This document shows positions 11,923 through 61,277 of a stretch of 64,000 bases of DNA, one piece after another. The notes under the pieces were generated by a model. It was not told the origin of the DNA, ran no database searches, and saw nothing but the letters and a program-made list of their open reading frames with translations. The stretch is from the IMG/VR virus record IMGVR_UViG_3300005264_000001, positions 1-64,000 of that record; one strand, written 5' to 3'. A program made the translations under genes and the position numbers. Positions within the stretch are counted from its first letter, which is position 1. Every line of letters starts with the position of its first letter. The stretch comes from a virus.

Positions 11923-12087
11923 ATGAAGAAAAAAGAAACAACAAATTTAAAGGAAGCTAAAGGTAGATTTATTTGTTATAATTGTAAATTAGGATTTAAT
12001 AAGTTAAGATGTATAGGAGTGGGACAAGGTTACTGTGAAAAGTGTTGGAAACTAGAACCTTGGAACAAAAGACTTATAAATGATTAA
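11923..12087 (+). CDS. small zinc-finger protein
   Basis: Leaderless ATG after CATTTATAAA; CYNC...CEKC. Confidence 0.55.
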   Translation: MKKKETTNLKEAKGRFICYNCKLGFNKLRCIGVGQGYCEKCWKLEPWNKRLIND

Positions 12088-12130: not shown

Positions 12131-12844
12131 ATGATTAAAATAGAAAATACAAAATTTGAAAAGTTTCTGAAATATATTTCAGTAGAAAAAGTTAATGAAC
12201 AATTAGTAATTGAATTTACTGAAAATGGTATTGAAGCAAACGTTTTCTCAATAGACCACACGTTAGCAGTAATTGCTACACTTAAAAAAGAAGACTTTAT
12301 TGAATATGAAAATATTAATAAAAAAGTTGGAATTAAAAATGTAGAAAGTTTAATTAATATTATGAAAGTTCTTTCAAATGATGTTGAATTAAACGTAATA
12401 GAAGAAAACAATACAGAATTCTTATCAGTAGTTAGTGATAAAACAAAAGCAACTGTATCAGTAGCAGATATTGATAGTATTGAAACTAAATTAGACCCTA
12501 AATTTAAAACAATGATTCTAGAAAAAGACACAAATTTTGTATCTTTAGATAGAAGCACAATAAATAAGTTATCTTCTATTATTGGGAGTGTTGAAAAATT
12601 AACTAAGTTAACTATTAAAGATAATGTATTAAATGTATTAATGGGTAGTTCAAGTATAGTTACAATTAATAATACTATTGAAAACTTTGAACATGTAGAT
12701 GAAAAAGGAACTTATGGAGTTAAAATTAGTAATGTTTTAAAAACTATTAAAGATGAAGATGTAAGTTTATGTGTAATTGAAGGAAATTTAATTCTTAGAG
12801 TAGAAAAGTACAACTCATTAGTTTTACTAGCATCGGAGGAATAA
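12131..12844 (+). CDS. pcn: PCNA-type DNA sliding clamp
   Basis: 237 aa; IEFTENGIEANVFSIDHTLAV and DFIEYE..KKVGI match the PCNA N-terminus; adjacent to RFC. Confidence 0.8.
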   Translation: MIKIENTKFEKFLKYISVEKVNEQLVIEFTENGIEANVFSIDHTLAVIATLKKEDFIEYENINKKVGIKNVESLINIMKVLSNDVELNVIEENNTEFLSVVSDKTKATVSVADIDSIETKLDPKFKTMILEKDTNFVSLDRSTINKLSSIIGSVEKLTKLTIKDNVLNVLMGSSSIVTINNTIENFEHVDEKGTYGVKISNVLKTIKDEDVSLCVIEGNLILRVEKYNSLVLLASEE

Positions 12845-53324: not shown

Positions 53325-53912
53325 TTAAATATATTTAATATTGTTAATAATTTCGTTCATTTTTTCCATGAACTCTTCTTTTTTCTTAGATTCTTCTGTG
53401 TTTAATTGCTCAACTGCTGACCCCTCAAAACTTTCTGCGAATACAACTTTAGCTTCTTCAAATCCTTCACATGAGACTATCGAACATTCATTCCACGACT
53501 TTACAGTTGCTTCTCTATATGATTCTCCAGACTCTGTTTGTTTATTTAATGCTTGACCGTTAATGTTAAGACTAACTCTTAACTCACTTGCGTTTCTTAA
53601 ATACTCAATTAAACTCTCGTTATATTTTGTATCATAAATCTTTGCTGTACCATATAATCCGTCTTCCTTACCCTCAACAGATAACCAATGCCCTACTGGT
53701 AATGAATGGTCTGAAGTTTTGTGATTGTACATAACATTCTTACCGATTAACTCATTAGCTTTTTCTAAGATTGACTCTTTATTATACAATACACCGTTTC
53801 TTGAAGTTTTATGAAAAGGAACAATCATACCTGAGATTGTCTTATCTTTTGCTTCATTAGCTTCAGAAAATACTGTATCTATACTAAGGTTTTTGTTTTT
53901 AATATCAACCAT
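53325..53912 (-). CDS. prohead protease
   Basis: SRNGVLY, YNH...PVG, VSL, ECSIV. Confidence 0.85.
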   Translation of the reverse strand: MVDIKNKNLSIDTVFSEANEAKDKTISGMIVPFHKTSRNGVLYNKESILEKANELIGKNVMYNHKTSDHSLPVGHWLSVEGKEDGLYGTAKIYDTKYNESLIEYLRNASELRVSLNINGQALNKQTESGESYREATVKSWNECSIVSCEGFEEAKVVFAESFEGSAVEQLNTEESKKKEEFMEKMNEIINNIKYI

Positions 53913-53953
53913 AGAATAATATTATTATTATTTGTTTTTAAATATATTTAGAA

Positions 53954-54958
53954 TTAGTAAATGACCTTCTGGTCATCATTTATAATTACAAATCCACAAT
54001 TAAGTTCTTTAATTATATTATTCATTCTTATTTCATCTTTCTTCATTTGCTTCTCACTACTTCTGTGATAACACTCATTAACTTCATATACAACATTATT
54101 AACTTCATCATAACCATCTACGAAATATCGTAATACTTGATATTGTCTTGTAATGTTTATATCTAGTTTATATTCAATCATATCTAAAGCAGCTGTTTCG
54201 TTCCTACCAATCATTGGAGAAAAAGAAACACTCTTTAAACCATACTTTCTTATATGTTCAGTAATAGCTTTACTTCTCCTTAAAGAAGTCAATTCTTTTT
54301 GTTCTTTAGTTCTGTTTTTTAAAGTTTCTTTAAACTTTCTAACTCTAGATAATTCTTGTTTTATAGTTAAACTTTTTCTATGCTGTCTCATAAATATACT
54401 TTGTCTTTTAGACATTTGTTGTCTTGTCTCATCAGACATATTCTCATTGACTTTCTTTCTAGCCTCACTTTGATTTTTAAAAACATCAGCTTTCTTTTCA
54501 TCACTCCAATTTTTCATAGTTTCTTTTCTTTTATTAGCAATTTCTTTCTTTTGTTCAGGAGTTAAACTGTTAAGCCAAGCATTATGTGTTACTCTATATC
54601 TTTCCCTCATTTCTTTAGTATGTACTCTATTCCTTAATAATTCACTTCTATCAGCACTCATCTTTTCCTTAGCTTCGTGTGACATATTTTCAAGACCTAC
54701 AAACAATCTATCTATTTTTGCTTGTCTTTCCTCATCAGAAATAGTTTTATTATAGGCTGTCATACCTTTACTTTGACTACTTTTGAATTCTTTTGAGTTA
54801 CAGAATGCTCTTCTTTTTTCACTCATTATATCTATGTTTGGAAAATTAATTATATACTCTGGTACACTTGTATTATGTGTTTTTAGGTGTCTAGTAGTAA
54901 TTTGTTTAAATTCTCTATTACAAATCTCACATGTAACTTTATCTTTTAACTCTTTCAT
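53954..54958 (-). CDS. homing-type endonuclease (Zn finger, NUMOD3-like repeats, Vsr/DUF559-like nuclease)
   Basis: CEIC..HLKTH, basic helical repeats, YFVDGYD...YEVNECYH. Confidence 0.78.
   Translation of the reverse strand: MKELKDKVTCEICNREFKQITTRHLKTHNTSVPEYIINFPNIDIMSEKRRAFCNSKEFKSSQSKGMTAYNKTISDEERQAKIDRLFVGLENMSHEAKEKMSADRSELLRNRVHTKEMRERYRVTHNAWLNSLTPEQKKEIANKRKETMKNWSDEKKADVFKNQSEARKKVNENMSDETRQQMSKRQSIFMRQHRKSLTIKQELSRVRKFKETLKNRTKEQKELTSLRRSKAITEHIRKYGLKSVSFSPMIGRNETAALDMIEYKLDINITRQYQVLRYFVDGYDEVNNVVYEVNECYHRSSEKQMKKDEIRMNNIIKELNCGFVIINDDQKVIY
53958..54046. repeat. 89-bp exact direct repeat with 57827-57915
   Basis: Identical 3' ends of the two endonuclease genes. Confidence 0.92.
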
Positions 54959-55533: not shown

Positions 55534-55599
55534 ACTAATAGTAATACTCTTTAGTTTATAAGTCTTTCGATAATTTAGAATAGTGTTTATAAAGATAAA

Positions 55600-56649
55600 T
55601 TATTTTATTAATACTAAGAACTCTTTTCTTACATTAATACTAAATTCTTCTCCTTTTTCCAAAGAGTCAAACTTTGATTCATATTTTGAGAATACTTTTT
55701 CGACTGAGCGTTTGATATCTCTCAATTTATAATCCTTTTGAAATTCTTGGGCTAAACTTTGATAACATACAGCGACTAGTTCAGATAAAGATTTGCTATG
55801 CATAGCAAATCCAGAGTACTTAAAAAAATATTTCTTACCTGGTGCATCTTTTCTTTTTATAGACACAGTATTTATAGTAGATAATTTTTCTTTAAATCCA
55901 TCTTGTAATCTTTCGATTAAATTTTTAAGTCTTTCGTTTGTTTCTTTATAACTCAAATTATGTTGGTCAAATACAGATTTTAATTTCTTATCAAATCCTT
56001 TAACTTTAACATTATTTCTCTTTTTCCATAATCCGTTTAATACACCTGCTCTCTTAGTCTTTTTTAAACTTCCTATATGTTTGTTTAGTGACTTAAAGAA
56101 GAGTCTTATAAACGTCTTAGAAACGGGTCTAAATGAACTATTAGCACCATTACTAACGAATGTAGCAAAGTCTGCAATATCTTTTGTTAATTCTTTCTTT
56201 TGTTTGTCATTTAGTTCAGCACCTGGGACTGGTTTATATAAATAATCATGTGATAGTTCATAAGCCACAGTATGTAAGAATGTTCTTACTTGTACTTCTA
56301 CTTGTCCTAAATTGTGTTGAACAACTCCTGCGTAGTCAGGTCTAGGATTTACAATGTAATCTGATGTAGTTGTAATTAAGTCTTTGAATATCTCTTTAAT
56401 TCGACCGGCAATCACTTTATATCTACTCATGTTATCAATGTGAATTCTAAATCCAAATAAATCTCCTAAATCTTCTAATTTTCTATATTTATCAGGTTTG
56501 GTTTTAATTTTGTTTAATGCTGAGTTTAAATCTTTTGCTCTATAAGTATAAGTAGTACCGTCTAATTTTCCTAATCTTTTTCTAATCTCTGGAATAATTG
56601 TAGAGTTTAGATTTTTCATCAATTTATCATAATCCTTCTTATTCGCCAT
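55600..56649 (-). CDS. RelA/SpoT-type small alarmone synthetase (toxSAS-like)
   Basis: YRAKDLNSALNK, DLFGFRI, DYIVNP..DY, EVQVRT, ELSHDYLYK. Confidence 0.85.
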   Translation of the reverse strand: MANKKDYDKLMKNLNSTIIPEIRKRLGKLDGTTYTYRAKDLNSALNKIKTKPDKYRKLEDLGDLFGFRIHIDNMSRYKVIAGRIKEIFKDLITTTSDYIVNPRPDYAGVVQHNLGQVEVQVRTFLHTVAYELSHDYLYKPVPGAELNDKQKKELTKDIADFATFVSNGANSSFRPVSKTFIRLFFKSLNKHIGSLKKTKRAGVLNGLWKKRNNVKVKGFDKKLKSVFDQHNLSYKETNERLKNLIERLQDGFKEKLSTINTVSIKRKDAPGKKYFFKYSGFAMHSKSLSELVAVCYQSLAQEFQKDYKLRDIKRSVEKVFSKYESKFDSLEKGEEFSINVRKEFLVLIK

Positions 56650-56926
56650 CTTTACAACATTCTATATATTCTTTTATTAACTCTTGACTATCACTAGCAA
56701 ATTCTGGGTAGATTGTACTAATAGTAGCAATAGCTTCCTCTTTTGTAAATGCTGAAGTAGTTAATACTTCACTATTACAATCATCTTTGTTTTCCAAAGT
56801 TTCTTTAAACACACCAGCGTTATTGTAATCCATTGCTTCCTCAAATGAGTCGAATGATTCACAACTTACTAATTCTCCTGTTTTCATATTCTTAGTGAAT
56901 ACAAAACTAAATTCTTTCTTTTCCAT
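56639..56926 (-). CDS. putative antitoxin of the SAS (CapRel antitoxin-like)
   Basis: Overlaps the SAS start. Pattern FVF...TGEL...F.S.EEAM.Y...EVL..SA......TIYPEF resembles the CapRel antitoxin domain by eye. Confidence 0.5.
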   Translation of the reverse strand: MEKKEFSFVFTKNMKTGELVSCESFDSFEEAMDYNNAGVFKETLENKDDCNSEVLTTSAFTKEEAIATISTIYPEFASDSQELIKEYIECCKDGE

Positions 56927-57005
56927 TTTATTTAATATAGTAAAGTAATATAAATATTACTTTTTAAATATATTTTACATACTTAATCGTTTCTTGTTGA
57001 AATAC

Positions 57006-57266
57006 TTAACAAAACTTTAAAGCTTGTTCATAGTATTTATCTCCTTTACAAATTTTAAGTCTATCTTTTTCAAAGTAATCTGTCATCATATCAGACTCAT
57101 TTGTATAATTTAGTTCTTTAGGGAAGTGTTCATACTCTCTATTATATACAGTAATTGTATCTTCACTTAGTCCACTTTCTTTTGTATAGTTACCAATACT
57201 ATAAAATACTTTCCATTTCTTGTCACCTTGCTTAATACAACTTTTTAAAAATCTTACTTCTGACAT
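57006..57266 (-). CDS. hypothetical protein
   Basis: NESDMMTDYFEKD motif, common in small phage proteins. Confidence 0.7.
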   Translation of the reverse strand: MSEVRFLKSCIKQGDKKWKVFYSIGNYTKESGLSEDTITVYNREYEHFPKELNYTNESDMMTDYFEKDRLKICKGDKYYEQALKFC

Positions 57267-57465: not shown

Positions 57466-57533
57466 CTTATAATAATAGTAATACTTACTCCTTTATAAGT
57501 CTTTCGATAAAATTAGTTGTTGTTTATAAAGAG

Positions 57534-57815: not shown

Positions 57816-57819
57816 TTTA

Positions 57820-58773
57820 TTATTCATAAATGACCTTCTGGTCATCATTTATAATTACAAATCCACAATTAAGTTCTTTAATTATATTATTCATTCTTAT
57901 TTCATCTTTCTTCATATTCTTAGGTCTCCTATGATGATTTTCATATACTTCATATACAACATTGTTAATCTCATCATAGCCATCTACAAAATACTGTAAA
58001 ATAGGAAATTGTCTTGTAATGTTTATATTAAGTTTACTTTCCATCATATCTAAAGCTTTTGTTTCATTCTTACCAATATTTGGCAAGAACTCTTTTCCAT
58101 TTATTTTTCTATGTTTTTTAAAATATTCTATTGCAGATTTTCTAATTTTTTCTTTCCATTCACTTTTTACTTCTGGTGTCATCTGATTGTGAACATTTTT
58201 TGAATGTTCTGAAAAATCAAAAGTAGACTTAGCCAATGCTTCTTTTGTTTGTTTAGCCAACTCTCTTCTTCTTTCTACTGGTGTGTTTTCCCAAGCTTTC
58301 TTTTGTGACTTACTCAACTTTTTCAAAGACTCTTCACTCCACTCATATCCCATGTGTACTTTAGACATATGTTCTCTATGCCCTGGTCTTTTCCATACCT
58401 CTAATTGTCCTTTTGACATAGACTTTTTCCATGCTCCAATATCTTTTGGTTTATTCCATATACCTTTCATAGTTATACTTTTCTTCTCACCGGCTATTCT
58501 GAGACTTTCACAAGTCTCTTTAGTTAGTCCTTTATGCCAAGCACACTTCTTTTTTAGTTCCTTGGCTTTTTTCTTTCCATGTATTTCTTCAAAAGTTTTA
58601 CCCTTAATGGTGTTTCCATAACAATTTTCGGATAATAATTTTCTAGTGTTATCACTAAGTAAATTAGAGTTTGGAAATTTTTCTTTATAATATTCTATTG
58701 TAGTGTTGTGTCTTTTTAAGTGAGTATTTGTAATACTCTTAAATTCTTTACCACAAATTTTACATTCTACCAT
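57820..58773 (-). CDS. homing-type endonuclease, paralog of 53954..54958
   Basis: CKIC..HLKRH, NUMOD3-like SEESLKKLSKS, YFVDGYD...YEVYENHH. Confidence 0.78.
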   Translation of the reverse strand: MVECKICGKEFKSITNTHLKRHNTTIEYYKEKFPNSNLLSDNTRKLLSENCYGNTIKGKTFEEIHGKKKAKELKKKCAWHKGLTKETCESLRIAGEKKSITMKGIWNKPKDIGAWKKSMSKGQLEVWKRPGHREHMSKVHMGYEWSEESLKKLSKSQKKAWENTPVERRRELAKQTKEALAKSTFDFSEHSKNVHNQMTPEVKSEWKEKIRKSAIEYFKKHRKINGKEFLPNIGKNETKALDMMESKLNINITRQFPILQYFVDGYDEINNVVYEVYENHHRRPKNMKKDEIRMNNIIKELNCGFVIINDDQKVIYE

Positions 58774-58832: not shown

Positions 58833-61277
58833 TCACTCATAAGGAATCCAAGAACACCTACATCCCCACTCATCAGTGATTAAAGGTTTTTTACCACTTA
58901 ATAAGTCATCAATTAAAAACACATGTTTGTTAAGTTTCCTGTGGGAATTCCTAACTTTTTCGTCACGCCTCGTTCTGAGCTGTGCTCGAGTTAAGCCCAA
59001 ATTTTTCCACTTTCTAAGTTTAATGATTGAACCAGCTGTTCTTGCTCCTTTCTTTATTACAACATCAAATCTATTTACAATTCCACTCTTGTAATCATAC
59101 TTTGTTCTAATCTGGTTTTTAATATCTTTAACATCAACACCACGTCCAACCATATCAGCTATATCAGACATTACCATCTGTGAAACATTGTTTTTTGTTT
59201 GTTCTACACTTTGTAGTATAACGTCTTGCATGAGTCTCTGCTTGTCTGAGATGGTCTTTTCTCCTTTCTTGATAACTTTGTCGTGAGCTTCATTATCTAC
59301 TCTAGGAATCGTTCCTACTTCGTTATTTACTATGATGTTGTGTTTAGTTAAGGCTCTCCCAACACTTCTGTTTATTCTACTACCAAATATATTAAATTTC
59401 TTCTTTAATCCAGGGAAAAATGTATCACTCAAAAATCCTTCAGTTAAACATACAGGTATTTCTGTATTTAGACTTTCTTTTATTTTCTCTTTTTTATCTA
59501 ACATAGAAATTATATCATCAATAAGAGTATTCCAATCTTTTTCAACATCATCTCCTACTCCATCTAAAAGTTTGTCCTCTTCTGATTCTTCATCATCAAA
59601 GATTTCTTGTTCATCTAAAAGATGTTTAATTAAAGCATCATAAGTTTCTTTAGCTTGACTTACACCTTCATCTACTCTTTCTACTTTATGTAATAGTAGG
59701 GATTGAAAAATTAAATAAGAATTTTCATCTTTAATTAATCTAACTACTATTCCTCCAATGTCCCTCTTACTGAGTTCTTTTGACTTGGAGGATAAACTAA
59801 AACCTGTTTTGTTATTTAGTTTATTTACTCTTTTACTAAATTCTTCATATGATTCATTACCACCTAAACTTTCTGAAAATCCTTTTAAACTTTCTGTTTC
59901 ATTAGTTTCTTTAGGAAGGTTTTTAGTATCTAATTCGATACCTTCAAACACTCCTAATTTATTATAATAATCTACAATTTGCTCTCTTGTAATTACTCCT
60001 TGATTAATTAAACTATCAACTAAACTTGTATAGTCTTGAACGTTTCCACTTAATTGAGGTGTGTCAAATACAAATGTAGCATTAAATGGTACATTTTCTT
60101 TACCAAAATCTTTTCTTAATCTAGATAAGATAATTTCATTTAGATATTTTACAAGTGCTCCTTGTCTACTTTTCAATCTTAACATAAAAGCCGGCATTGC
60201 TTGTTCACTTCCCATTGTTGTAGCACTATCTGACCAAGGTGTTAAGTGTTGTGGTAATAAACTCATAACAAGCATTCTTCTAACTAAATCAAACACTCCT
60301 TCCAATGTATCATAATTTCCACTTACTTTAATATCTTGTTCTAACATCTTTAGTGGGTAAGGTAAAATCTTAAAGGAACTTCCAGTATCAGCTAATTTGT
60401 CTTCAATATCTTCTTGAACTGGTTTACTCATTTGAAAACCTTTTCCATCTTTATCAAGTGTCATAATCTTTTGGTCAATAGCTTTATTTCTTGCGATTGT
60501 ATCCCATGCTCCTATAATAGATGAATATACATTGAATGCATCAATTCCTGAAGCTAAAATACTTCTACCATAAACATTATCACTTGAAAATCCTGTTGTT
60601 CTTAAATCCATTTCACCGTCTGAGATGTATACACCATATATTGTAAATCTCATAAATACATTATTCTTAATATATCCTACTTGTATTTGTGTTGGTGTTT
60701 TAACTTTACCAGCGAACTTAAAACTAGTTTGTCCTTGTGGTGTCATTAAAATATATTTTTTTGAACCATCTTCATCTTCTAAATTTACAAATATACGAGA
60801 CATATCATTATATGTTCCAATACCATTAAAGTATGTTTTACCATCATCTCCTTTCTTATAGAAGAATTGAACAGGTGCATTTCCAAAAATAGTGTTAGCT
60901 GTTTCCATTTGTTTAACTTCCTCAAGTAACCAACCTCTAGCATCTAACCAATCATTGATAAAATCTTCTGCCTTATCATTACCCTCAACAACAACTCTTA
61001 AATTATCATTTGAAATCAACATATCATTATACTGATTGATACCAGTTGATACAAGTGGACAAGTATTATACATTTCTAATTGTCTAATAAACTCATAATG
61101 AGGTGTTCTATCTTCTCCTTTATCTGTAACTCCTGGAGAGAATGTAAACGCACCTAAATCTGCTAGGTTTGTTATTTTAGTCTCCATGTTATTATTTTCC
61201 TTTATTGCTTCACTTATAAATACATCTCTATAAGTTAACGGTGCGGATTCTTTTATATCTTCTTTTATTGTTTCCAT
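58833..61277 (-). CDS. portal protein fused to a MuF (gp7-like) head morphogenesis domain
   Basis: IFGNA and YGRSIL portal motifs; C-terminal DEKVRNSH...WGCRC. Confidence 0.85.
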   Translation of the reverse strand: METIKEDIKESAPLTYRDVFISEAIKENNNMETKITNLADLGAFTFSPGVTDKGEDRTPHYEFIRQLEMYNTCPLVSTGINQYNDMLISNDNLRVVVEGNDKAEDFINDWLDARGWLLEEVKQMETANTIFGNAPVQFFYKKGDDGKTYFNGIGTYNDMSRIFVNLEDEDGSKKYILMTPQGQTSFKFAGKVKTPTQIQVGYIKNNVFMRFTIYGVYISDGEMDLRTTGFSSDNVYGRSILASGIDAFNVYSSIIGAWDTIARNKAIDQKIMTLDKDGKGFQMSKPVQEDIEDKLADTGSSFKILPYPLKMLEQDIKVSGNYDTLEGVFDLVRRMLVMSLLPQHLTPWSDSATTMGSEQAMPAFMLRLKSRQGALVKYLNEIILSRLRKDFGKENVPFNATFVFDTPQLSGNVQDYTSLVDSLINQGVITREQIVDYYNKLGVFEGIELDTKNLPKETNETESLKGFSESLGGNESYEEFSKRVNKLNNKTGFSLSSKSKELSKRDIGGIVVRLIKDENSYLIFQSLLLHKVERVDEGVSQAKETYDALIKHLLDEQEIFDDEESEEDKLLDGVGDDVEKDWNTLIDDIISMLDKKEKIKESLNTEIPVCLTEGFLSDTFFPGLKKKFNIFGSRINRSVGRALTKHNIIVNNEVGTIPRVDNEAHDKVIKKGEKTISDKQRLMQDVILQSVEQTKNNVSQMVMSDIADMVGRGVDVKDIKNQIRTKYDYKSGIVNRFDVVIKKGARTAGSIIKLRKWKNLGLTRAQLRTRRDEKVRNSHRKLNKHVFLIDDLLSGKKPLITDEWGCRCSWIPYE

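Follow-up and report, generated by a model that had tools for sequence, protein, structure and literature searches.

What might a RelA/SpoT-type synthetase (SAS) be doing among the head genes of a virus that probably infects archaea? RelA/SpoT-fold toxins are familiar as effectors of bacterial toxin-antitoxin (TA) modules and of secretion systems, as well as cargo of head proteins in temperate phages; archaea, for their part, mostly do without a stringent response. The question is raised by a virus record of IMG/VR, IMGVR_UViG_3300005264_000001 (92,961 bp, with direct terminal repeats), the first 64 kb of which constitute the window analyzed herein; positions are those of the window unless given as genome positions. 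There, on the minus strand, an open reading frame (ORF) for an acidic orphan protein of 95 aa (56639-56926), our candidate inhibitor or antitoxin gene, runs into the 349-aa SAS gene (55600-56649), both as delimited in the ORF list. The answer we favor, at a probability of about 40%, is that the pair specifies a late-made, toxic RelA/SpoT-type pyrophosphokinase together with its cognate inhibitor, probably associated with the virion.

The two genes form an overlapping operon, as the first-pass annotation of this DNA had proposed. Direct reading of the sequence places the start codon of SAS inside the last codons of the 95-aa gene, within an 11-nt overlap (ATGGCGAATAA; 56639-56649, minus strand), and the ORF list holds no plus-strand ORF of more than 54 aa across the interval occupied by the pair. 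As no Shine-Dalgarno motif is present in the sequence before this second ATG, the start of SAS synthesis is suggested to be coupled to translation of the 95-aa ORF. The two products carry opposing charges, the small protein having a pI of 4.2 (net charge -13.5) and SAS a pI of 9.8 (net charge +30).

The first 172 residues of SAS (56134-56649, minus strand) make up a SYNTH domain, i.e., that of a RelA/SpoT-type nucleotide pyrophosphokinase. Pfam RelA_SpoT (PF04607) matches residues 37-139 (E = 1e-10; 42.3 bits against a cut-off of 27), and the same family is recovered at 44.1 bits in a six-frame scan of the viral genome. An AlphaFold2 model built on an 18-sequence alignment reaches a mean predicted local distance difference test (pLDDT) score of 82, with ~90 for residues 1-190; it displays the SAS-type nucleotidyltransferase fold, with RelQ and RelP as its best structural matches. 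In alignments, R37, K47, D63, R68, Y106, E118, Q120, R122, H134, and Y138-K139 coincide with residues that form the catalytic and ATP sites of RelSeq and CapRel; in RelSeq, the counterparts of R37, R68, D63, E118-V-Q-V-R-T, and Y106 are R241, R269, D264, E323, and Y308, and CapRel R79, R116, and Y155 align likewise with SAS residues. As judged from these alignments, the ATP-donor and catalytic site of SAS is intact.

The acceptor site is a different matter. All RelA/SpoT motifs had been credited to SAS, which stands for the catalytic and ATP-site residues; however, the guanine-recognition part of motif 3, Y-x-S-x-H, is replaced by Y-A-G-V-V. This G-loop (Y106-A-G-V-V; 56320-56334, minus strand, located by alignment) reads Y-Q-S-L-H in long RelA/SpoT homologues, Y-S-G-I-H in CapRel, and Y-R-S-x-H in the portal-fused and nearest relatives of SAS. 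In the description of the Apk2 toxin, S-x-H is the guanosine-recognition element, with G-x-N in its place in (p)ppApp synthetases (PMC12226406). Since the S-x-H element is missing from the loop of SAS, its acceptor is probably something other than GDP or GTP, to go by sequence. The single close relative of SAS (P0003), a 148-aa fragment on a 1.5-kb ENA contig with 52% identity over SAS residues 92-237, keeps the loop as Y-A-G-V-T, along with the catalytic motifs and the basic helices that follow the SYNTH domain; retention of the deviant loop and downstream motifs at this level of divergence makes the site look selected rather than decayed.

Beyond the SYNTH domain, SAS continues into an extension comprising residues 173-349 plus the stop codon (55600-56133, minus strand), modelled at a pLDDT of 62-90 as helices, a three-strand meander (262-285), and further helices. 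The stretch from residue 151 to residue 230 is very basic (+15), and residues 173-237 are conserved in P0003. No Pfam, PHROG, or PADLOC match of note and no Atlas structure at TM > 0.5 was obtained for the extension, and it has no sequence likeness to either the CapRel C-terminus or the 95-aa protein. The earlier description of a C-terminus of ~200 aa with no known match is thus upheld, residues ~175-349 falling outside every family and fold searched. Together with the deviant acceptor loop, this ~175-residue C-terminal domain may indicate a new substrate or a new way of targeting the capsid.

These properties bear on whether SAS need be a toxin at all. A non-toxic viral alarmone synthetase could instead provide a late nucleotide signal that retunes host metabolism or transcription, or jams nucleotide-based defense signaling, with the 95-aa ORF encoding an unrelated late protein or a mild regulator, and with an early-class alarmone hydrolase elsewhere in the genome (described below) acting as the opposite arm. 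Such a role would accommodate the intact catalytic site, the matching hydrolase in the other temporal class, and the ranking of the ordinary alarmone synthetases RelQ and RelP as best structural matches; moreover, alarmone-type host manipulation by phage RelA/SpoT domains has been proposed by Iyer et al. (PMC5512222). We nonetheless regard it as unlikely, given that the guanine-recognition residues are replaced, that SAS, at a net charge of +30 and with its basic residues 151-230, would appear to have a nucleic-acid partner, and that the tight gene overlap and charge complementarity would go unexplained. Nor does (p)ppGpp have any known target in archaea. Compared to housekeeping RelQ and RelP (PDB 5DEC and 6EWZ), SAS displays only ~16-19% identity, has lost the guanine-recognition S-x-H, is strongly basic, bears a long C-terminal extension, and shares a late operon of the virus with a partner ORF.

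To which branch of RelA/SpoT-type enzymes does SAS then belong? HMMER, run exhaustively over 1.84 billion representatives, yielded 30 proteins at E ≤ 0.001. After P0003, the next-best matches (46-52 bits) are proteins of ~280 aa whose N-terminus bears a linker motif, GPRGG-x-YY. The list further includes portal proteins with a C-terminal SAS (P0009 and P0012; one such fusion is an HK97-type portal of 704 aa, another has 1238 aa), as well as a 1030-aa long protein combining InPase and SAS (P0015). Predicted viral structures that match SAS include those of stand-alone phage RelA/SpoT proteins and of large polyvalent-type proteins. CapRel SJ46, in contrast, scores 20.8 bits (pairwise BLASTP E = 0.047), and a 12-sequence CapRel profile gives E = 0.06 with hhalign. 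In a multiple alignment, the motifs KPD-x-Y-[RK]-K-L-x-D-L-x-D, D-Y-[IV]-x-N-P, and H-D-x-x-Y-K-P, in addition to a post-domain helix, are common to SAS and the portal-associated group, to the exclusion of CapRel. The first-pass annotation had called the synthetase CapRel-like; with 20.8 bits set against 46-52 bits for the phage SAS family that includes the portal fusions, we rejected membership of its SYNTH domain in the CapRel subfamily.

The linker of these relatives deserves mention in its own right. Five of the ~280-aa phage SAS proteins (P0004, P0006, P0007, P0014, and P0030) carry an N-terminal Y-[IV]-K-N-P-x-E-[AV]-P-x-G ... G-P-R-G-G-x-Y-Y sequence. Because the G-P-R-G-G core is also found within the linker of a portal-SAS fusion (P0009), it may constitute a docking or cleavage module. 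Other searches yielded less: a word-indexed protein search with SAS returned nothing beyond SAS itself, IMG/VR, JGI metagenomes, and GTDB genomes, scanned with SAS or a two-sequence alignment, revealed no relatives, and scans for genomic context with the relatives P0004 and P0009 gave no matches. Six phage-database matches to SAS were dropped; the two examined (MT835702.1 and MT836483.1) proved to be bacterial chromosome fragments mislabelled as phage. Both are gut contigs entered as "UNVERIFIED Bacteriophage sp.," in which a long Rel is flanked by SecDF, RecJ, Apt, D-Tyr-tRNA deacylase, and radical-SAM genes.

If the enzyme is not of the CapRel group, the 95-aa protein is where a resemblance to that system appears. 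By conventional searching it is an orphan: a search of 5.8 billion clustered proteins returned only the protein itself, it matched no Pfam, PHROG, PADLOC, or NCBIfam family and no Atlas feature, and the PDB returned nothing by Foldseek at E < 0.001 or by phmmer at E ≤ 10. Its single-sequence AlphaFold2 model (pLDDT 72, predicted template-modelling score 0.65) is fairly confident for that method and comprises strands at residues 4-13 and 19-25, a helix at 28-36, a strand at 50-59, a helix at 62-72, a hinge at 73-79, and a final helix at 80-91. The resulting beta-beta-alpha-beta-alpha-alpha topology, in which a helix links strands 2 and 3 of a three-stranded antiparallel sheet and two helices form the C-terminus, agrees with the layout published for the pseudo-zinc-finger domain (pseudo-ZFD, pZFD) of CapRel. 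The latter has a three-stranded antiparallel sheet, an inter-strand helix, and C-terminal helices, and the YXXY motif of its hinge (Y352 and Y355) plugs the ATP site (Zhang et al., PMC9712102). In the 95-aa protein, the hinge between the last two predicted helices bears Y73-P-E-F76 (codons at 56699-56710, minus strand), which aligns with Y352-P-N-Y355 of CapRel SJ46.

Three alignment methods place Y-P-E-F on Y-P-N-Y in the same register, all with weak scores. BLASTP against CapRel SJ46 puts residues 46-83 on the Y-P-N-Y stretch (NKDD..EVL..YPEF against NKDD..EVL..YPNY) at a pairwise E of 0.012; Smith-Waterman extends the match to the first hairpin (T-K-N-x-K-T-G), with a score above that of all but 11 of 2000 shuffles against the C-terminal third; and hhalign against the 12-sequence CapRel profile gives an E of only 0.2. 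As a control for specificity, the CapRel C-terminus reaches the same Smith-Waterman score (at least 44) with 2 of 127 other viral ORF products, and the sequence match alone is therefore not specific. We accordingly place homology of the 95-aa protein with the CapRel antitoxin at roughly even odds: the resemblance claimed by the first-pass annotation is consistent across methods, in model topology as in hinge register, but the scores are weak and homology is not statistically established.

Physical association of the two products was modelled by co-folding; the outcome was graded as weak support, for which the median ipSAE interface score was 0.36 (0.36, 0.43, and 0.00), with 0.02 for the best of three controls. 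The mark applied to such co-folds is reached by 58 of 80 solved complexes and by 2 of 110 mismatched pairs, with values of at most 0.60 coming from 7 of the 80 complexes and from both passing mismatches (co-fold runs: at least 67% of contacts in agreement, partner pLDDT at least 58); the result was counted neither for nor against binding.

A protein of this kind beside a toxic SAS (toxSAS) brings up a classical TA or superinfection-exclusion module of the CapRel, PhRel, or FaRel2 kind, in which the pZFD-like protein would hold SAS in check and free it upon encountering a protein from a competitor, leading to shutdown of the cell that both viruses had infected, with no packaging involved. The overlapping bicistron with its acidic small partner and basic enzyme suits such a module, as do the pZFD-like hints with their YXXY-like hinge, and phage-borne toxSAS modules are known, namely Phrann gp29/gp30 and CapRel of phage SJ46 (PMC7229694, PMC9712102). 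Indeed, the locus resembles the pZFD-containing toxSAS modules (CapRel, fused or split; PhRel, Phrann gp29/gp30; FaRel2-ATfaRel2; PMC7229694, PMC9712102, PMC11782079) in its overlapping operon of small partner and SAS, its carriage by a virus, its basic enzyme, the predicted topology and Y-P-E-F hinge of its small protein, and the CapRel-like Gly after Y-x in the G-loop. It departs from them in having a SYNTH domain outside the CapRel group, an extra C-terminal domain on the enzyme, presumably late expression, and a place among the head genes of what seems to be a lytic virus. The gene order is also reversed: the small gene comes first, upstream of SAS, whereas the antitoxin of CapRel is C-terminal (or downstream).

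What separates a sensor of this type from a late effector is, above all, timing. Inspection of the 70 nt upstream of 126 non-overlapping ORFs across the whole record revealed two classes of motif. A copy of the late class, AAATATATTTAAAAA (56961-56975, minus strand), presumed to act as a promoter, lies 34 nt ahead of the start codon (ATG) of the 95-aa ORF. With a 13-nt core, ATATATTTAAAAA, this class is present in the 93-kb record as 12 minus-strand copies and one plus-strand copy, the former mostly ahead of packaging, head, or tail-region genes; those preceded by the motif include TerL, an endonuclease-like gene, the 95-aa ORF, the prohead protease, the scaffold, the pre-capsid gene, the baseplate-J gene, and other tail-region genes. 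Its recurrence indicates a genuine signal, not a chance AT-rich string, bearing out the earlier proposal of a late-type promoter at this site; that the class acts late we infer from the set of genes behind it. The other class, AAAGACTTATAAA, considered early and present, e.g., at 55553-55565, 57490-57502, and 12070-12082, is found ahead of replication genes, small genes, and genes of the right arm of the record, while genes internal to operons have GGAGG-like ribosome sites in place of a promoter motif.

A sensor module is thereby put at a disadvantage. Lying behind a motif of structural genes and not an early one, the sensor would appear alongside the capsid proteins of its own virus, and only at the end of the cycle. 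Further, no integrase or resolvase was detected in the record, such that there would be no lysogen to protect, and the SYNTH domain of SAS is nearer to portal-fused SAS than to CapRel. We thus consider a TA or exclusion module possible, though doubtful; of the two ideas in the first-pass annotation, we find the evidence more compatible with a late or packaged effector than with a virus-versus-virus sensor.

The position of the pair points the same way as the motif. Upstream, an 814-aa protein (58833-61277, minus strand) has a C-terminal MuF domain, matching PHROG 324 (head morphogenesis; 7.9e-8) and, at 26 bits and thus under the cut-off of 29.6, Pfam Phage_Mu_F (PF04233; 1.6e-5). Its N-terminal part has faint support as a portal (portal PHROG, 0.0045) and had no sequence match in the PDB or the phage database. 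Downstream lies a 195-aa prohead serine protease (Peptidase_S78; 53325-53912, minus strand; 23.7 Pfam bits against a cut-off of 21), whose gene has its own late motif 22 nt before the ATG. The pair does lie between the portal-MuF gene and the prohead protease, as had been noted, though MuF is not adjacent, with six other genes also in the interval; the eight encode, in order, proteins of 317, 104, 65, and 86 aa, the pair, and proteins of 170 and 334 aa, the 170-aa ORF carrying an early-class motif of its own.

Two of these neighbors bracket the SAS block: upstream, a 317-aa zinc-finger protein with a possible endonuclease domain (57820-58773, minus strand; weak ROS_MUCR and DUF559 matches) and, downstream, its 334-aa paralogue (53954-54958, minus strand). 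At their 3' ends, the two genes agree in 94% of positions over 106 nt and in 78% over the adjoining 167 nt (53947-54217 against 57816-58083), forming direct repeats 3.87 kb apart. The SAS block has the look of an accessory island set within the head module and, given the direct repeats of paralogous genes on either side, may be a recombination-prone or mobile cassette. Bracketing by endonuclease-like paralogues with near-identical ends, reminiscent of a mobile island, is a further point in favor of a TA or exclusion module.

The genome also encodes an enzyme of the opposite type. A small alarmone hydrolase (SAH; HD_4, 145 aa) is located outside the window, on the minus strand at genome positions 82445-82882 (46 bits against a cut-off of 27.2). 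All HD motifs are intact, with H-x-G-Q-x-R, H-D-x-x-E-D, and D-R-x-x-N-L present, and the protein matches the hydrolase domain of Thermus Rel (1.3e-15) and a (p)ppApp hydrolase (PDB 7smg; 4.9e-8). Its gene is the second of an operon behind an early-class motif, 26 kb from SAS. Small alarmone hydrolases serve as antitoxins of toxSAS enzymes, and some reverse the pyrophosphorylation of tRNA (PMC7229694; 10.1101/2021.04.30.441581).

Synthetase, small partner, and hydrolase together recall the toxins of MuF proteins. RelA/SpoT domains fused to MuF and present in polyvalent proteins are thought to be packaged and injected (PMC5512222; also PMC5576092, PMC12226406); MuF toxins of the RelA/SpoT fold (Apk2) are toxic (p)ppApp synthetases, against which the binder IapK and the (p)ppApp hydrolase Aph1 stand guard (PMC5576092, PMC12226406). 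As in those systems, a RelA/SpoT-fold pyrophosphokinase is found here in the head/packaging module near portal and MuF, with a small candidate binder and a separate HD-type hydrolase in the same genome; as for the portal, MuF, and polyvalent fusions, the nearest SYNTH relatives include portal fusions and the InPase-containing long protein. Differences from Apk2 are nonetheless evident: (i) SAS is stand-alone, beginning ~30 residues before the first catalytic strand with no N-terminal domain, and the MuF domain is encoded 2.2 kb upstream; (ii) the Apk2 signature of RYT (syn2), GxN (syn3), and YH (syn4) corresponds to GFR, A-G-V, and VR in SAS, with only the syn3 Gly in common (PMC12226406); (iii) the candidate binder is pZFD-like and encoded upstream, and the Tas1-Tis1 complex 6ox6 is not among the structural matches listed for it; and (iv) the hydrolase is far away in an early operon, in a virus with no detected integrase and a probably archaeal host.

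Virion delivery is the reading favored by the late motif and the place of the pair in the head module, by relatives fused to portal or polyvalent proteins, and by both the parallel with Apk2-IapK-Aph1 and the early class of the hydrolase. The pair could then operate as follows, the steps from binding onward being inferred. The small acidic protein would be translated first and SAS only through coupling, so that the inhibitor would never be limiting. The inhibitor would bind SAS, perhaps in the manner of a pZFD, with its Y-P-E-F hinge entering the ATP-donor pocket, and with SAH it would keep the producing cell alive until assembly was complete, by the same logic as Apk2-IapK-Aph1 of MuF polymorphic toxins. 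Free SAS would act where these guards were absent, most likely in the next cell, having been carried there by the virion, after which early SAH would terminate its action in the newly entered cell. As acceptor, something other than GDP or GTP would probably serve, with the CCA ends of tRNA favored and adenine nucleotides placed second; either could function in an archaeal cell devoid of a stringent response. The preference for tRNA stems from the pZFD-type partner, the CapRel-like Gly in the G-loop, and the strong positive charge of the enzyme, pZFD antitoxins being companions of tRNA-targeting toxSAS (PMC11782079). It is a guess, as no sequence signature marks the toxSAS enzymes that use tRNA (Kurata et al.).

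Several observations weigh against a virion-borne toxin with a cognate inhibitor. Two pZFD antitoxin structures do come within the top 50 of 48,161 chains compared with the model of the 95-aa protein, but with scores at noise level and a GIY-YIG fold slightly higher. The 46-52 bits of the portal-associated relatives are only modestly above the 37 bits that an ordinary long Rel attains against SAS, and SAS is without the GPRGG-x-YY linker motif common to those relatives. Nor is SAS fused to MuF or to a portal, five genes separating it from the MuF gene. In the MuF-Apk2 locus, the immunity genes are downstream of the toxin, whereas the small gene here is upstream (PMC12226406), and MuF toxins have been reported only in temperate phages, while no integrase was detected in this record. 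Finally, the early SAH could alternatively be a counter-defense against a toxSAS of the host.

Were tRNA the acceptor, a use other than poisoning can be envisaged, in which SAS would cap CCA ends for the benefit of the virus, against host defense nucleases or CCA trimming. The genome does contain a tRNA toolkit, consisting of RtcB, a class-II CCA-enzyme-like protein that also has an HD domain, an RNA ligase (PF09414), tRNA-like genes whose anticodon arms carry odd inserts, tRNA-Gln (A1:U72), and tRNA-Leu (genome positions 68381-69499, 71656-73050, 89923-90867, 76949-77598, and 91462-92251, outside the window). Beyond this shared genome, the highly basic nature of SAS and the Gly of its G-loop, at the position of the Gly of CapRel, would suit a tRNA-protecting enzyme. 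The argument is purely contextual, however, the toolkit genes being in the early region, tens of kb away, and the literature searched offered no precedent. In addition, 3'-pyrophosphorylated tRNA cannot be aminoacylated (10.1101/2024.07.05.602228; 10.1101/2021.04.30.441581), such that protection of CCA ends in this way would block translation too. We hold this use of SAS to be very improbable.

The significance of a late toxin with its inhibitor depends in part on the host, which several features suggest is archaeal. Among the 48 [TC]TTATAAA motifs with the ATG of an ORF of 40 aa or more within 60 nt downstream, 26 are exactly 21 nt before that ATG and 36 are at 20-24 nt. The first-pass annotation had spoken of an archaeal-type virus, and a BRE (B recognition element)-TATA-like motif is indeed held at a fixed distance, its center ~25 nt before a leaderless ATG; the fixed 21-nt spacing of AAAGACTTATAAA to the leaderless ATG is the geometry of archaeal BRE-TATA promoters. 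A sliding-clamp candidate of 237 aa (12131-12844) matches the archaeal PCNA model PRK01115 (1.4e-5, well under the cut-off of the model) and PCNA_N (0.003, also below cut-off). The first pair of tRNA-Gln is A1:U72, which we take to be the archaeal type. For the capsid protein, portal, and terminase, no relatives were found in IMG/VR or among 50,697 phage records. Promoter geometry, PCNA-like clamp, tRNA-Gln, and this lack of phage-record matches favor an archaeal host; against it stand a polymerase and a CCA enzyme of bacterial or phage type. On this balance of sequence features, the host is quite probably an archaeon. The absence of a detected integrase or resolvase fits a lytic virus.

In the literature searched, no archaeal virus with such an enzyme has been described, and work on archaeal tailed viruses and Asgard viruses brings up only MazG with regard to ppGpp (PMC8651126; 10.1101/2021.07.29.453957). 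Phage SAS toxins, their antitoxins, and their fusions to head proteins are already known; the novelty here lies in the probable archaeal virus, in a late SAS gene that stands alone and is preceded by that of a pZFD-like partner, in the assignment of toxin and hydrolase to different temporal classes, and in an enzyme with a deviant acceptor loop and a C-terminal domain without a known fold. If true, the toxin-inhibitor reading would extend a toxin system of bacteria and phages to archaeal viruses. Should both the host assignment and the toxin reading hold, the weapon would work via targets common to all cells, i.e., tRNA ends or the ATP pool; the binder-plus-hydrolase immunity of MuF toxins would have been rebuilt in a lytic virus, with the hydrolase early and the toxin late; and SAS, the 95-aa partner, and SAH would constitute a compact, directly testable three-protein set. 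A more elaborate scheme can be drawn, which we deem unlikely in its entirety. Virion-delivered SAS would block the 3' CCA ends of host tRNA (or drain ATP as (p)ppApp) upon entry, with the pZFD-like inhibitor guarding the producer cell and early SAH, together with viral tRNAs and repair enzymes, reversing the damage. This would amount to a timed "strike, then repair" takeover, the first toxSAS-type system of an archaeal virus, for which a stringent response would not be needed.

Two further features of the record may be mentioned. Upstream of the pair, an 86-aa ORF (57006-57266) matches PHROG 18717 (E = 1.6e-5), a family with no assigned function; it follows a 65-aa coiled-coil-like ORF, itself behind an early-class motif. 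Replication genes of the record include a family-A polymerase, a clamp loader, the PCNA-like clamp, an ATP-dependent ligase, and an SNF2 helicase, among which the sliding-clamp candidate adjoins the gp44/RFC-like clamp loader and the family-A polymerase, an unusual combination.

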